From the NCBI GenBank assembly GCA_965198115.1, contig OZ240241.1, positions 6,112,001-6,176,000 on the forward strand: a DNA stretch of 64,000 nt, read 5' to 3'. The notes beneath the pieces were generated by a model, which was given only the letters and a program-made list of their open reading frames with translations, was not told the DNA's origin and did not search any database. The stretch's first letter is position 1; every line of letters begins with the position of its first letter. This stretch comes from Candidatus Latescibacterota bacterium. Its GTDB lineage: Bacteria > Latescibacterota > UBA2968. The translations under genes were made by a program, and so were the position numbers. This document shows positions 8,144 through 16,050 of this stretch, one piece after another.

Positions 8144-10515
8144 ATGGTCCTGCTCGCGCTCATCCTGCTAGCCATCGATCTACACGCGTCATCGACGACC
8201 AATGTCATCGTCCGCGGAAGCGTGCGGGACGCGACGTCGGGACAGCCGCTCTCGCCCGCCACCGTTCGCGTCGATAACACCTATCTCGGAACGATCACCA
8301 GCCAGCAGGGTGAATTCGAACTGCGCATCGAACGGTTACCCGCGCGTCTGCTCGTGAGCCATATCGGATACGAATCGACCGATCTCACGATCTCCTCCTC
8401 CGGAAGCTACGACTTCCACCTCCTACCGGTAACTTACGAAATGGAAGAGCTCGTCGTCACGGCCGAAGACCCTGCGATCAGCATCATGCGCAAGGTGATC
8501 GAGCGGAAACGCCAGTGGCGGCAGGACCTGAAGACGTTTCGTGTCGACGCCTATAACCGGTTCACGCACCGCAAGGACTCGACGATCGTTTCCGTCATCG
8601 AAAGCCTGTCGGAAGCCTACTGGGATCACGAAAAGGGCTGGCGCGAAATCGTCAAATCCAGACGACAGACCAAGAACATCGACATCGAGGATTCGTTTCC
8701 GGCCGCCGTCTTTATCGACAACCTCTACGACGACAATGTCCTGGTCGCCGGGCACCGCCTTCAGGGCGTCACCCATCCCGACGCGCTCGATGTCTACGAC
8801 TTTACGCTCGCCGGACGACGCCGGATGGACGATCGAACCGTCTACGACATCGAGGTTCGCTCAAAGAGTCCGCGATCGTCCGCCTTCGAGGGCCGCATCG
8901 CCATCCTGGACGAAGCTTATGCCATGCTCGAGGCCGACCTTCGTCCGAATGACTCTTTCATCTTCCCGCCTCCGCTGCGTCTCTTCAAGGTCACCTATCG
9001 CCAGCAGTACAGCGACTTTGGCGGAGACTACTGGCTCCCCATCGGAAACCGTGCGACCATTGTCCTCGACATCGGCATCGTAGGTTTCGGATCCCCTCGA
9101 TTCGCGGAGAACCAGGTATCTCGTCTTTCAAACTACGAAGTCAACGTCTCCCTCCCCGATTCACTCTACCAGTCCGAGGACGTGACCACCGTTGACTCTG
9201 TGTCAGTGCAGGTCGATACACTCCTCGCCAAGGGTGGCTTGGCCCTCAGTCTCGAGCCCGAAGAGAAAGAAGCCTATGTCACCATCGACAGCACACAGAC
9301 GCTCGAAAAGGTTTTCAGCCGGAAGGGTTTCTCGCTCGGATTTTCATACGCGACGACGATGACGGGGGTGATAGCGGGAAAAGCGAGGGCAAAGACGGTA
9401 AAAAGAAGAACCGACCTCTCTCATTCGGGCTGAAACCCACGCTCTACTACAATCGCGTCGACGCAGCAAGACTAGGAGGGCGCCTGCTCTCGCGGTCGAA
9501 ATCACGAGATATCGAAGTCGGCGTCGGCTTCGATTACGGAACGAGGTCCAAATCGTGGAACCAGACTGTCAGGATCCACAAAGAATGGGGACCGCTCTCG
9601 GTCAACGCCACCTATTTCGATGGGATAGAACCCCGCTACAGCTCCGATCTTTACTCGCGATTCTCGGCCAGCATGCTTCCCCTCGTGGGCAAAGACGACT
9701 ACTTCGATTACGTCGACACGAAGCGGTGGCGTGGGGGGCTCAGCCTCACGTCGCGCAGGCTGGACGCGAGACTCGATGTCGAGCTGAACCACGAGAGGCA
9801 CGCTTCGGTCGCGAAATCGACGGACTACTCGATCGTCCGCACCTTCACACAACGTCCAAATCCGTCCATCGACCCCGGAAGGCTTCGCTCGGTCATCCTG
9901 CGATTGTCTCACAACCAGGAGGAAGGTCCACCCGCCCTTTTCGGTCAAAAAAAGCTCGAACTGGCGTTGGAACGGTCGCCTGGGGGCGTACTCTCGAGCG
10001 ACTTCGACTTTACGCGTCTTGCGTTCCGCGCGGTCTGGCGCTTTCCGACTTTCTACAGCCGTCGTCTGCTCCCGAACACGCTCGACGTGAGTCTGATCAC
10101 GGCCACGTCTTGGGGTCGTCTCCCTCGGCAGCGATTCCCGATCCTCGACGTCAGCCTCGACGGCTGGAACGAGCCGGGAGCCTTGCGCGCGCTCGTCACC
10201 TATCCCTACGAGGGAGAAAAGACCCTCGGATTCACGTGGGAACACAATTTCCGGACGCTCGCTTTCGAATGGCTCGGTTGGGACGCGCTCGTCAGACGCT
10301 CCATCGGCTTCATCCTCTACGGAGGTCACGGACGGACGTGGATCCCGGACGCTCGGCTCGCCGGACTGGCCGACACACCCCAGTACCAGGACCGGTTCCA
10401 CCACGAGGTCGGTCTCTCCGTCAACGGCATCTTCTCCCTGTTTCGGATCGACTTCACCCAGCGCCTGGATCGTTCTGACTTCGTCGTCGGGATGGGCATC
10501 GCCCGGCTCTTCTGA
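8144..10515 (+). CDS. Carboxypeptidase-regulatory-like domain + DUF5686 outer-membrane protein; one apparent frameshift
   Basis: Signal peptide, GSVRDATSGQPL...SHIGY. Adding one T in T4 at 9312-9315 joins 8144-9433 to the 9673-10515 frame through LYYNRVD. Ends in Phe (beta-barrel signature). Confidence 0.8.
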
Positions 10516-10651: not shown

Positions 10652-13624
10652 GTGAACCTCAACCCTCGACAACTCCAGGCTGTCCACGCGCCCATCGGCC
10701 CCGTCCTCGTCGTAGCCGGACCCGGGACGGGGAAGACCCGCGTTCTTACGGAGCGCATCCGCTATCTCGTCACCTGCCACGGGGCTCCTCCCGAATCGAT
10801 TCTGGCCCTGACCTTCACCAACCGGGCGGCCGGCGAGCTGGCGGACCGACTGACAGACATCCAGCCGCTCGATCAACCGATCCAGGCAGCGACGTTCCAT
10901 CGTTTCTGCCTGAACGTACTCCGAACACACGCATCGACGGCCGGGCTGCATCCTCGCTTTGCGCTGGCCGACCCCGATCTTCAGCGCACGGTGCTCTATC
11001 GATCGATTCCGAACCTGAGTGCGGAAGAAAGCAACCTTTTGAACACCGTCCGCCATCTCGAAGCCATCAAACGGAAGCGACGCGAAGACGACCACCCGCT
11101 CTCGACGGGCGACCGTGAACTCTACGAAGCTTACACCGAAGAAATGAAGCGGGAAAGACTACTCGACTTCGACGACCTCATCACGCTAAGCATCGATCTC
11201 TTTCGGAAAAACCCTTCCGTCCTGGCCGATTACCAGAATCGCTGCGCGCACATCCTCGTCGACGAATTCCAGGACACCGACCGGTCCCAGTACGAGCTCC
11301 TCCATCTCCTGGCAGAGCGGAGTCGAAGTCTGTTCGTCGTCACCGACGCTCGCCAAACGATCTACGCGTGGCGATCCGCCGACCCGGAAAACCTGGTCCG
11401 TCTCCGTCGTGATTTTCCGAAGCTATCACCCCCGCTGACCCTGGAAGAGAATTACCGATCCTCACGGAACATCCTCGCTGCGGCATCGGCCGTCATCACG
11501 CCCTCGAGCAACGAACCCTCACCCATCCGTTCGATGCGCGAAGGCGCACCGATCAGAGTTCTCGCCTTCCCATCGTCTCTCGACGAAGCACGGTTCATGC
11601 TCGGCGAAATCAAAAGCCAGCTGGGTCAGGATGATCTCCAACCACCTGACATCGCCGTCCTCTATCCCCAACACGCGATCGGGGACGAAATCGAGCGCGT
11701 CTTCATGGAAGGCACGCTCCCCTGTTCACTTGCTCATCAAAGAGGGACCTTCGAACAGCCCGTCATACGACACTGTCTCTCGGCGTTGCGATACGCCCTG
11801 AACAGCGAGAATGACGCCGGTCTCGAGGACTTCCTCCGCAAGGAGCTCGATGCGTTCGATCTCGCCATCTATCCGGCTATCCGCGCGCATCAACGCCAAC
11901 GAGGAACCAGCTTCAAACAGGCCGTCTTCGACTACATCCAAACCGCCCCACGAGAGACGCGTCGACTCGTAGAACGTGTCGTCGGACTCGCCGGATCGGC
12001 CGCCGGCGCCCTTCAGCACGGAAGTCGACAATCCTTCTCGAGTCTGGTTTCCGACCTGCTCGATCAGCTCCATCAGGAGACCGAGCCCACAGTGCGGGCG
12101 GAACTCGAGAGAGTCAGCGATCCAGCCGCCCTCTCAGAAGTCACCTCTGTTGCGCAACACGTGAGCACCATCCTCGACCGCAAGGGTCGAATCTACGTCA
12201 CAGGCGATGAAGTTCTCGCGCATCTGGTCGCACGCATCCTGCGCCGTGGTTTCAGGGGGAATGGGGCCGAAATCCTCGTTGCCTCCCGCGGTCACCGTAT
12301 GGACCTGAGCGACGAAGCGATCGCTCTTTCTGTCGATCGGAACCCGGTAGACCCACTCCTCTCCCTCACGAGCGACGGGATGGGACCCGTGCTTACGGCC
12401 TACAAGGTCGTACAGCTGCTCCTCACGCCTTCCGATCGAGATCTTCAGGACTACGTCGCCCTCGACGTCGAAACCACGGACATCGATCTCGACAGGGCCG
12501 AAATCATCGAGCTGGGCGCCGTACGCGTGCGGCGCGGAAACATTATCGGTCGTTTCCACACGATGGTCCGGCCCAGGGGCAAAGTCACACCCGGCGCCGT
12601 CGAGACACACGGCATCACGAACGCCGCACTGTCCGATGCCCCGACGTTTCGTGACGCCGGTCATCGATTTGTGAATTTCGTCGGGAACGACGTTCTTATC
12701 GCTCACAACGGTTATGGCTTCGATTTTCGGGTACTCAACCGCGAGTTCGATCGCAACGGACTGGCCCGGATCCCCAACGCCCGGTTCGACACGCTGCCCC
12801 TGGCTCGGAGCTACTACCCCGAGGGCCCCAACTCGGTCGACGCCCTGGCTGACCGATTCAAGATCGACATCGAGACCGGCCGTCACCGTGCGCTCCACGA
12901 CGCTCGATTTCTTCACCAGATTGTCCAGGGTCTGATGCGCGAGAGAGCGGCAAGGGCCCGCAAGGGCGCGCTCGAGAGTGCGCTCGACACAGTCGCGCTC
13001 GCTCTCCTCTTCCAACCTTCCGATTTCGACCGTCGCTGGACCCCCGAAGAAGAGATCCTCTACAACCTGGGCGGCATGCGACTCCTCGGTCCATCCAACA
13101 CGGAATGCGCGAGCCTTTGTCGCGCCTTTCCCAGATTGTCGCCCGAGACCCTCGCCACCCGCATCCGGAGCGCGCTTCGGGAAGAGCCGACCGCCTCGAA
13201 ACTCGCCTCCCAGGCGCCCGAGCAGATGCAGCGATTGAAGAACCTCTCGAAGACGTTCGAGCGAAGGACGTCGACCACGAGAGAGGCCATCGAACAGCTT
13301 CTGGACTTTGCGGGTCTGCATCGCCTGGAAAGCGATCGTCAACGTTCGAACGCGGTTCACCTCCTCACACTCCACGCCGCCAAAGGCCTCGAGTTTCGCC
13401 ACGTCTACATCTGCGGCCTGGAAGAGAAGACGCTCCCCAACGCCCGCGCAGTCAACACCGGCAACCGAGATGAAATGGACGAACAAAGGCGTCTCCTTTA
13501 CGTCGGCATGACTCGAGCGAAGGACCGACTGACCCTCACACACGCCGAGCGGAGACCGGGTCGGGCAAACCTCGAGCCGTCCCACTTCCTCGCAGACATC
13601 CTCCCTCATCTTCGCCAATCGTAA
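10652..13624 (+). CDS. UvrD/PcrA-like SF1A helicase with inserted DnaQ-like (DEDDh) 3'-5' exonuclease
   Basis: Helicase motifs AGPGTGKT, VDEFQD, QTIYAWRSA, LEENYRS, TLHAAKGLEF, RRLLYVGMTRAK. Exonuclease motifs ALDVETT, AHNGYGFD, HRALHDA at ~12450-12905. Confidence 0.9.
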   Translation: MNLNPRQLQAVHAPIGPVLVVAGPGTGKTRVLTERIRYLVTCHGAPPESILALTFTNRAAGELADRLTDIQPLDQPIQAATFHRFCLNVLRTHASTAGLHPRFALADPDLQRTVLYRSIPNLSAEESNLLNTVRHLEAIKRKRREDDHPLSTGDRELYEAYTEEMKRERLLDFDDLITLSIDLFRKNPSVLADYQNRCAHILVDEFQDTDRSQYELLHLLAERSRSLFVVTDARQTIYAWRSADPENLVRLRRDFPKLSPPLTLEENYRSSRNILAAASAVITPSSNEPSPIRSMREGAPIRVLAFPSSLDEARFMLGEIKSQLGQDDLQPPDIAVLYPQHAIGDEIERVFMEGTLPCSLAHQRGTFEQPVIRHCLSALRYALNSENDAGLEDFLRKELDAFDLAIYPAIRAHQRQRGTSFKQAVFDYIQTAPRETRRLVERVVGLAGSAAGALQHGSRQSFSSLVSDLLDQLHQETEPTVRAELERVSDPAALSEVTSVAQHVSTILDRKGRIYVTGDEVLAHLVARILRRGFRGNGAEILVASRGHRMDLSDEAIALSVDRNPVDPLLSLTSDGMGPVLTAYKVVQLLLTPSDRDLQDYVALDVETTDIDLDRAEIIELGAVRVRRGNIIGRFHTMVRPRGKVTPGAVETHGITNAALSDAPTFRDAGHRFVNFVGNDVLIAHNGYGFDFRVLNREFDRNGLARIPNARFDTLPLARSYYPEGPNSVDALADRFKIDIETGRHRALHDARFLHQIVQGLMRERAARARKGALESALDTVALALLFQPSDFDRRWTPEEEILYNLGGMRLLGPSNTECASLCRAFPRLSPETLATRIRSALREEPTASKLASQAPEQMQRLKNLSKTFERRTSTTREAIEQLLDFAGLHRLESDRQRSNAVHLLTLHAAKGLEFRHVYICGLEEKTLPNARAVNTGNRDEMDEQRRLLYVGMTRAKDRLTLTHAERRPGRANLEPSHFLADILPHLRQS

Positions 13625-13782: not shown

Positions 13783-14550
13783 TTGTCCAAACCGGTCTAC
13801 TTCATCTCCGACATTCACCTCGGCGAACCCTACCCACAACGGAATCCCCGCGAAAAGGAAGATGCTCTCATCGCGTTTCTCCAGCACGTGAGGGAGCGTG
13901 CCGACACGCTTTACATTGTCGGCGACCTCTTCGATTTCTGGTTCGAGTATAAACGGTCCGTTCCAACAACGGGTGCCCGCGTGGTCTTCGAACTGTATGC
14001 GGCCGTGCAGGGCGGACTGCGCATCGTCAGTCTCCCGGGCAACCACGACATCTGGATCGGTGATTACCTGTCGCGGCAGGTGGGTCTCGAACTGCCCGGA
14101 GGCCCCGTCGATACGGAAATCCAGGGGCGCAGGGTCCTCATTGCCCACGGCGATGAATTCCGCGAAGACCTGCCCTTCCGTATCAGCCGTGGCATACTCA
14201 AAAGTTCCTTCTGCATTCGCCTGTTCAGCTGGATCCATCCCGACGTCGGCGTGAGGCTGGGCCGATGGACCTCTCACCTGTCCGAGGCCAGGACGGGAAA
14301 CACACATGTTCACAACAGGCGAGTTTACACCAAAGCCGCGAATCGATTACTCGCTGGAGACGCCGACGTGGTCGTGTTCGGCCACTATCACGCGCCGATT
14401 GTCGAACAGCTCGACGGAGGCACGTTGATCGTCCTCGGCGACTGGGTCATCGAAGACAGCTATGCTGTTCTGGAAGATGGGACGTTCAGACTCATGCGGT
14501 GGGAAAACGGCAAGGGCGTGGAAGTCTCATCGACGGTCGCGACAGCGTGA
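13783..14550 (+). CDS. lpxH: UDP-2,3-diacylglucosamine diphosphatase (LpxH-like metallophosphoesterase)
   Basis: FISDIHLG, VGDLFDFWFEY, PGNHD, AHGD, FGHYH, LGDW. TTG start at 13783 is inferred. Confidence 0.8.
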   Translation: MSKPVYFISDIHLGEPYPQRNPREKEDALIAFLQHVRERADTLYIVGDLFDFWFEYKRSVPTTGARVVFELYAAVQGGLRIVSLPGNHDIWIGDYLSRQVGLELPGGPVDTEIQGRRVLIAHGDEFREDLPFRISRGILKSSFCIRLFSWIHPDVGVRLGRWTSHLSEARTGNTHVHNRRVYTKAANRLLAGDADVVVFGHYHAPIVEQLDGGTLIVLGDWVIEDSYAVLEDGTFRLMRWENGKGVEVSSTVATA

Positions 14551-14569
14551 CGACGCCGGCGTTCAGAAA

Positions 14570-16050
14570 ATGATCCTCGCCATCGATCAGGGCACGACGG
14601 GAACGCGGGCCGTCATCGTCGACGCCACCGGGCGCTACGTGTCATCAGCCTACCAGGAGTTCCCCCAGATCTTTCCCCAGCCCGGCTGGGTCTCGCACGA
14701 CATCCGCGAGATCTGGACCTCCACGACCGACGTGATCGACAAGGCTCTCTCCGACGCCACCTCGTCCGAAATCGTCGGAATCGGCATCACCAACCAACGT
14801 GAAACGACCGTCATCTGGGACCGCAGGACCGGCGAGCCGGCTCACGACGCCATCGTCTGGCAATGCCGTCGCACGACCGACCTGTGTCGGGCGTATCGCG
14901 ATGCGGGACTCACGGACACCGTCGCCGAGAGAACCGGACTCGTCATCGATCCCTATTTCTCAGCCACTAAAATCGTATGGCTGCTCCAAAACGTGAAAGG
15001 GCTCCGTCAACGAGCCGATGCAGGGGAGCTCTGCTTCGGAACGATGGACAGCTTCCTCCTCTTCAAGCTGACGGGGGGCGCAGTTCACGCGATGGACGTC
15101 ACAAACGCGTCTCGTACGATGATCTTCAACATTCACGATCAGCGATGGGACGACGATCTCTGCGAAGGCTTCGACATCCCGCCATCCCTTCTTCCCGAAG
15201 TCTACCCGTCAGCCCACGCTTTTGGAGTCACGGTGAGCGGCCTCGGTTCGCTGCCCGCCGGGATCCCCATCGCGGGAATGGCCGGAGACCAGCAATCGGC
15301 CCTCTTTGGACAACGCGGAACCTCCATCGGGGACATCAAGAACACTTACGGAACGGGCTGCTTTACCCTCTTCCAGACGGGTGATCGTGCGATCGCATCC
15401 CACAACGGGTTACTCACGACCATCTCCTGTGGCGCCAACGGTCTACCTGCCTATGCACTCGAAGGTGCTGTCTTCAGCGCGGGTTCGGCCGTTCAATGGC
15501 TCCGCGACGGTTTGGGGATCATTCAAAACGCCGCCGATACCGAGGATCTTGCCCGCTCGATTTCCAACACCGATGGCGTCTACCTGTCCCCGCTTTCACC
15601 GGCCTGGGCGCGCCGCACTGGGACCCGGACGCCAGGGCAACGCTCGTCGGCATCACGCGCGGCACCGAACGGGCCCACATTGCGCGCGCGGCTTTGGAAT
15701 CGATCGCCTACCAAACCGCCGACCTCATCCACGCCATGTCCGCCGACGCCGGCAGCCCCGTTACATCCCTTCGTGTCGACGGTGGCGCGTCGGCCAACGA
15801 CTTTCTCTTGCAGTTTCAGGCCGACATCCTCGACGTGACTGTCGTTCGGCCCAGGAACATCGAGACCACAGCCATCGGCGCAGCCATGCTCGCTGGCCTC
15901 GTCACCGGCGTCTGGCAGTCGTCGGACCTCTCGGACCTCAATCCTCCGGAAAGAACCTTCGACCCATCAATGGATGCCGACCGACGCGCCTCATTGCTCC
16001 ACGGTTGGCATCGTGCGGTCGACACCGCTCGCCGCCACGGATCGCTGTAG
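14570..16050 (+). CDS. glpK: Glycerol kinase; one apparent frameshift
   Basis: [47 protein letters not shown]. Restoring a G near 15586 gives [15 protein letters not shown] and continues to [15 protein letters not shown]. Confidence 0.92.

Follow-up and report, generated by a model that had tools for sequence, protein, structure and literature searches.

The window, a 64,000-nucleotide stretch of a Candidatus Latescibacterota genome, encodes at positions 10652–13624 (+) a UvrD/PcrA-type helicase of 990 residues (P0002) with a nested insert: one loop of its 2B subdomain holds the remnant of a RecJ DHH lobe, and that remnant in turn holds a DEDDh 3'-5' exonuclease domain. We are nearly certain of this three-layer architecture and of the RecJ origin of the segments flanking the nuclease. 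Helicase–nuclease fusions are already known, and a UvrD with a RecJ-nested DEDDh domain is a new variant among them; the open-access literature, to which our search was confined, yielded among the titles listed no paper on a UvrD with an internal DEDDh domain or on a RecJ-DEDDh protein. The case is of broader interest as a double domain nesting whose donor (RecJ-DEDDh), eroded intermediates and twice-dead end state can all be traced in sequence data. Annotation pipelines label the family as plain UvrD or DnaQ, and the RecJ part is overlooked.

The helicase motor and its interrupted 2B subdomain

The frame is open and intact from a GTG start, and Pfam recognises UvrD-helicase at residues 3–256 (1.6e-70), RNase_T at 602–754 (1e-31) and UvrD_C at 850–966. 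Subdomains 1A and 1B with the first half of 2A (aa 1–357; 10652–11722) carry Walker A K28, Walker B D204/E205, Q235 and R269; these and R955 are kept in 78/78 rows of a broad family set (66 full-length sequences picked by hand plus 12 earlier ones), and the start of motif III is divergent in P0002. The first part of 2B (aa 358–483; 11723–12100) is followed, beyond the insert, by a linker and the last 2B helices (13187–13336; 2B resumes at aa ~854, with PcrA 505–646 as the counterpart) and by the remaining half of 2A, which carries motifs V and VI (13337–13621). An hhalign comparison with ordinary UvrD covered the first 2B part over 353–492 (98.9%) and, after the insert, resumed from 500 onward (99.7%). 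The 1A/1B/2A/2B fold is present, in a predicted model that reaches a pTM of only 0.58. The initial annotation had rightly assigned the insert to 2B, where it occupies one loop of an otherwise complete subdomain; its proposed length of ~330 residues falls short of the ~370 found (about aa 484–853; window ~12101–13210). A 199-base contig from an RNA library matches 13220–13418, which is not in itself a sign of expression.

By its catalytic motifs and fold the protein is a UvrD/PcrA/Rep SF1A motor, for which ATP-dependent unwinding and 3'-5' translocation are predicted. It shares with UvrD, PcrA and Rep (1pjr, 2is1, 1uaa) the four-subdomain motor, the catalytic motifs and both 2B halves, and differs from them in the 370-residue insert, in the missing GIG motif and in the missing C-terminal tail. 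A GIG-like 2B pattern occurs in 0/78 family members versus 38/48 ordinary UvrDs. The residues after motif VI number 27–59 in 63 of the 64 measurable family members versus at least 105 in 38/42 ordinary UvrDs, so that the tail is missing throughout the family with one possible exception; P0002 itself ends 34 residues past motif VI and has no C-terminal Tudor tail. The protein scores 384 bits against the PcrA equivalog HMM, versus a cut-off of 911, and lies below every UvrD/PcrA/Rep equivalog cut-off (TIGR01073-5). An assignment to Gabija GajB or another defence helicase is not supported: the PADLOC matches cover the motor domain only, no GajA partner lies beside the gene, and its conserved neighbours are housekeeping genes.

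A DEDDh nuclease within a decayed RecJ lobe

The N-terminal flank of the nuclease (aa ~476–600; 12077–12451), whose start overlaps the last helix of the first 2B part, comprises in order the DP motif (12104–12124), a helix, beta1 with a dead motif I (12191–12208), a helix, beta2, beta3 with a motif II remnant (12320–12337), a short beta4 without DHH, and the helix that precedes the nuclease (12395–12421). The DEDDh domain (aa 601–762; 12452–12937), of RNase-H-like fold and a predicted metal-dependent exonuclease, follows with all 5/5 catalytic positions present, namely D605 and E607 of ExoI (D-x-E; 12464), D691 of ExoII (12701–12724) and H745 and D750 of ExoIII (H-x4-D; 12884–12904). The C-terminal flank (aa 763–~845; 12938–13186) contains the motif-IV helix without its Asp (12983–13006) and the next helix (13046–13072); its RecJ assignment is firm to aa ~811, and the last two helices are only tentatively RecJ. 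Every motif quoted in the initial annotation was recovered at its claimed position, and its description of the insert's centre as a DnaQ-like nuclease with intact motifs agrees with the five residues listed above.

HMMs built from the flanks alone ranked RecJ first among 11,212 genome frames, and did so for each flank independently. The N-flank profile matched the two RecJ genes of the genome at E values of 1e-7 and 8e-4, with the next unrelated frame at 1, and neither a control stretch (aa 395–475) nor reversed profiles gave any match among the same frames. Alignment to RecJ by hhalign gave probabilities of 88–93% for the N flank and 81–85% for the C flank (reversed, at most 0.2%); the middle of the N flank taken alone (536–600) gave no significant RecJ match. 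A first hhalign mapping from a narrower profile, in which strands 2 and 3 appeared deleted, was superseded by the broad-profile mapping, and the latter places the IALSVD segment at the third strand, exactly as had been proposed. Structural comparisons agree with RecJ but are more equivocal. In a VIA fold search RecJ (Z 7.1–7.7) tied with sugar-isomerase (SIS) domains (8.2), and Foldseek returned no E under 0.001, with RecJ-Cdc45 and GAN among the top-probability fold matches. A search with the whole model did not place RecJ in the top 50, as expected where two other domains dominate, and the ESM Atlas search on aa 476–600 was uninformative (best 0.83, to UvrD_C clusters).

A further link to RecJ comes from intact RecJ-DEDDh proteins, which occur in Elusimicrobiota. 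BLASTP aligns the family member P0245 with one of them, L144, in a single continuous stretch that begins at the pre-nuclease helix and takes in motif IV; the nuclease enters at the same site, with junctions mostly of 20/30 residues in RecJ-DEDDh versus 20/29 in the helicase insert. A search for RecJ proteins with a DEDDh insert at this place, suggested by the initial annotation, thus succeeded, and its reading of the flanks as a RecJ DHH domain in order is borne out jointly by HMM ranking, hhalign, less eroded relatives and these donors. Among the RecJs of Breznakiella and Elusimicrobiota (L143:1429-3549; L144-L173), the insert forms a series from an intact DEDDh domain through a decayed relic to near-complete loss.

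In RecJ the metal ligands are Asp and His residues from motifs I–IV, and the DHH fold is described as a parallel sheet of order 21345 with helices around it (PMC4846377). The family is without these ligands, as the initial annotation had stated for DxDG and DHH: the motif-IV pattern occurs in 0/78 members, and DHH and DxDG strings appear only out of register. The DHH core is also shortened, with 66 residues between motif I and the pre-nuclease helix versus 116–117 in the 18/31 RecJs measurable by pattern. Pfam DHHA1 and OB domains are found neither in P0002 nor in the 10 family homologs scanned, and the donor L144 has both. Compared with bacterial RecJ (TIGR00644; 8y30, 5f54, 2zxo), the family retains the DHH-lobe elements in collinear order, starting with the DP motif and ending with the helix that follows motif IV, and differs in the lost metal ligands, the shortened core, the absence of DHHA1 and OB, and the embedding in a helicase.

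The five DEDDh residues are kept in 75/78 diverse members and in 35/55 closer homologs (58 gathered, from which a filter removed L092, L099 and L106). The 20/55 with a dead DEDDh domain all belong to one sub-lineage, which also misses about 15 residues. In the twice-dead genus g6, dN/dS is 0.08 for the N flank, 0.12 for the DEDDh domain and 0.15 for the C flank, versus 0.03–0.075 for the helicase parts (15 sequences compared pairwise, the pairs not being independent), and D490, P491, K585, Q588 and D779 are kept in 52–55 of the 55 close homologs. Such purifying selection on dead parts indirectly supports the earlier proposal that the RecJ–DnaQ module was kept as a scaffold, and the dead RecJ part has probably been retained as a structural brace.

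Distribution and genomic setting

The architecture recurs in at least 78 full-length homologs from several phyla, as the search proposed at the outset revealed. In the host's phylum 33/168 genomes match at E <=1e-25, all within the host's order, and the same query did not find the gene in 20/53 genomes of that order. An insert-region search gave 65 matches of which 28, self included, share the architecture, three of them labelled Gemmatimonadales. A locus search with profile A1 returned mostly ordinary UvrD, with one family member among 80 loci (the Planctomycetota locus L006, which has the nested architecture); among the best 150 representatives for this profile, 88 have a DEDDh domain. Other named members come from Anaerolineae, Chloroflexi, Herpetosiphonaceae and Thermomicrobiales bacteria, and the cultured carrier Salisaeta longa (WP_022836910.1) makes the family open to study. 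A single origin is compatible with an unrooted FastTree of the helicase core, in which both family subgroups lie on one side of a branch with support 92 (comparison set: 22 ordinary UvrDs plus P0059), and weakly compatible with a quick DEDDh tree (support 84). Among the best 120 of 3489 proteins longer than 1281 aa we found no intact UvrD::RecJ-DEDDh intermediate, which is weak evidence; these 120 were PolC plus two multi-RecJ proteins. As separate observations, P0067 and P0068, each of 1850 aa, combine a Toprim domain with three DHH and three RecJ_OB stretches, and P0059 (829 aa) is an apparently independent UvrD-DEDDh protein with the nuclease earlier in 2B, a GIG-like motif kept and no RecJ flanks.

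The host genome also encodes an ordinary UvrD (a 770-codon frame with a long tail), two ordinary RecJs, MutL, ExoVII, LexA, RecA and one DEDDh-DinG, so that the nested helicase is an extra gene. Across 12 loci its conserved neighbours are an LpxH-like phosphoesterase (8/12), GlpK (5/12), a TPR protein (5/12) and unnamed frames; no repair gene lies near it, and the context gives no pathway. The 15-base word common to the lexA and recA upstream regions is absent upstream of the nested helicase, and no palindrome is shared by the upstream regions of lexA, recA, uvrD and the nested helicase. That word, upstream of lexA (G000:C1 3418137) and recA (2136483), may itself represent a LexA box that overlaps the promoter.

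Several features of these genomes were noted in passing. The host's complete genome (G000) has no stand-alone DnaQ-type gene, and the best RNase_T match in the host's order lies mostly in a ~955–990-codon frame, being DinG-like in G000. One open frame (L001:1495-4116 (-); G000:C1:~2693256-2695967) joins an RrnaAD domain to a full RecJ, which may be a fusion or a stop lost in assembly, the RecJs of the listed relatives mostly having 550–650 codons. Within the window, the glycerol kinase gene is broken into two frames (14462–16050), whereas it is whole in the relative L179, suggesting a frameshift or assembly error, and upstream of the helicase a DUF5686/carboxypeptidase-regulatory outer-membrane-type protein is apparently split into two ORFs (8144–10515).

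Proposed function and its alternatives

With a probability of roughly 0.5, we favour the reading that the protein acts as an accessory single-chain repair enzyme, which would translocate 3' to 5' along ssDNA, unwind duplexes and trim free 3' ends. The terms 'live' exonuclease and 'single-chain helicase-nuclease' used in the initial annotation are, likewise, predictions from conserved residues. Historically, a RecJ would first have acquired a DEDDh domain between its motifs III and IV, a RecJ-DEDDh of this kind would have donated its DHH lobe to the 2B loop in a single capture, and the 5'-3' RecJ site would have decayed after capture. In E. coli mismatch excision, UvrD is described as working with RecJ and 3'-5' exonucleases (PMC1616947), and it is our speculation that such teamwork was the reason for the ancestral fusion.

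Mechanistically, the 5'-to-3' path of ssDNA leads from 2A to 1A, and contact between 2B and the duplex through GIG characterises the inhibited UvrD monomer (PMC11912403); monomers become active when 2B is removed or bound by a partner (PMC13238157). Loss of GIG together with a 370-residue mass on 2B would plausibly relieve this contact, and the de-repressed helicase would then need neither a dimer nor a MutL-like activator. The DHH remnant would serve as a pedestal, such that rotation of 2B could bring the DEDDh site up to a flap close by or to the 3' tail as it emerges from 1A. Since DEDDh domains are 3'-5' exonucleases (PMC11981726, PMC11194089), the likely substrate is the 3' tail tracked by the motor, or a flap, no other end of suitable polarity lying close to a motor that has just loaded; trimming appears not to be needed in every lineage, given the sub-lineage in which the domain is dead. 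Transcription-coupled roles would be left to the genome's ordinary, full-length UvrD. As a natural GIG-less 2B variant, the family offers a direct test of the model that 2B–duplex contact inhibits UvrD monomers.

Among known systems, AddA, RecB and AdnAB also place an SF1A motor and a nuclease on one chain, and their motors match weakly. In these enzymes, which work in complexes, a RecB-type domain at the C terminus provides the nuclease, whereas the nested helicase has no partner gene beside it. ExoDinG (S. aureus 8zef/9ii8, B. subtilis DinG) and MrfA/MrfB likewise combine a helicase with a DEDDh 3'-5' exonuclease (PMC11981726, PMC11194089); however, they either carry the nuclease at the N terminus of an SF2 motor or divide the functions between two proteins, in contrast to the SF1A motor and doubly nested nuclease seen here.

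A possible but clearly less probable alternative is that the insert is mainly non-catalytic and Cdc45-like, binding DNA or a partner or locking 2B in an active state, with the nuclease secondary. Genus g6, where both nucleases are dead yet the insert stays under purifying selection, and the five near-invariant flank residues speak for it, as do the precedents of CDC45, a RecJ orthologue without activity that is part of a helicase complex and binds ssDNA there (PMC4846377), and of inactive RecJ homologs proposed as structural parts of archaeal replisomes (PMC3307487). However, DEDDh is intact in nearly all diverse members, low dN/dS may merely reflect the folding need of an inserted domain, and DHHA1, which forms the DNA groove of RecJ, is gone. 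Marginally more doubtful is the idea that the captured dead RecJ lobe is a built-in Cdc45-like activator, the monomer unwinding and feeding its own 3'-5' exonuclease as the relic of an ancestral machine; if true, that one-chain machine would have united UvrD with exonucleases of both polarities. Cdc45 and the inactive archaeal RecJ homologs resemble the insert as dead DHH domains tied to a helicase, but they keep the C-lobe and belong to a hexameric replicative helicase as subunits of their own, whereas here half a RecJ is embedded in a helicase of the repair type; the resemblance is one of analogy and does not make the protein a member of that group.

We consider it unlikely that the enzyme acts on RNA/DNA fragments (R-loop clearance, turnover or salvage) or substitutes for a missing stand-alone DnaQ proofreader. 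DEDDh domains do include RNases (PMC11981726), and the only two PF00929 matches in the host genome are the nested helicase and the DinG fusion; however, the order's genomes without the gene or with a dead copy mostly show no extra stand-alone DEDDh, which argues against an essential proofreader, and the RNA-polymerase-binding tail is absent. Still less probable is a role in processing ends for the Ku/LigD end-joining pathway: monomers of Mtb UvrD1 are activated by Ku (PMC13238157), but the host genome has no Ku match, Ku occurs in 3/33 carriers versus 22/135 non-carriers in the phylum, and neither ligD nor ku is among the named neighbour clusters.

Finally, we strongly disfavour the view that the flanks are a generic alpha/beta linker in an ordinary UvrD-DEDDh insertion: a Pfam scan of P0002 gave no DHH match, the narrow N-flank profile found no RecJ among PDB sequences, and the Foldseek and VIA results noted above are indecisive, but RecJ is the top-ranking match for each flank taken separately, with order and register both correct, the P0245–L144 alignment is unbroken, and the truly flank-less P0059 looks different.
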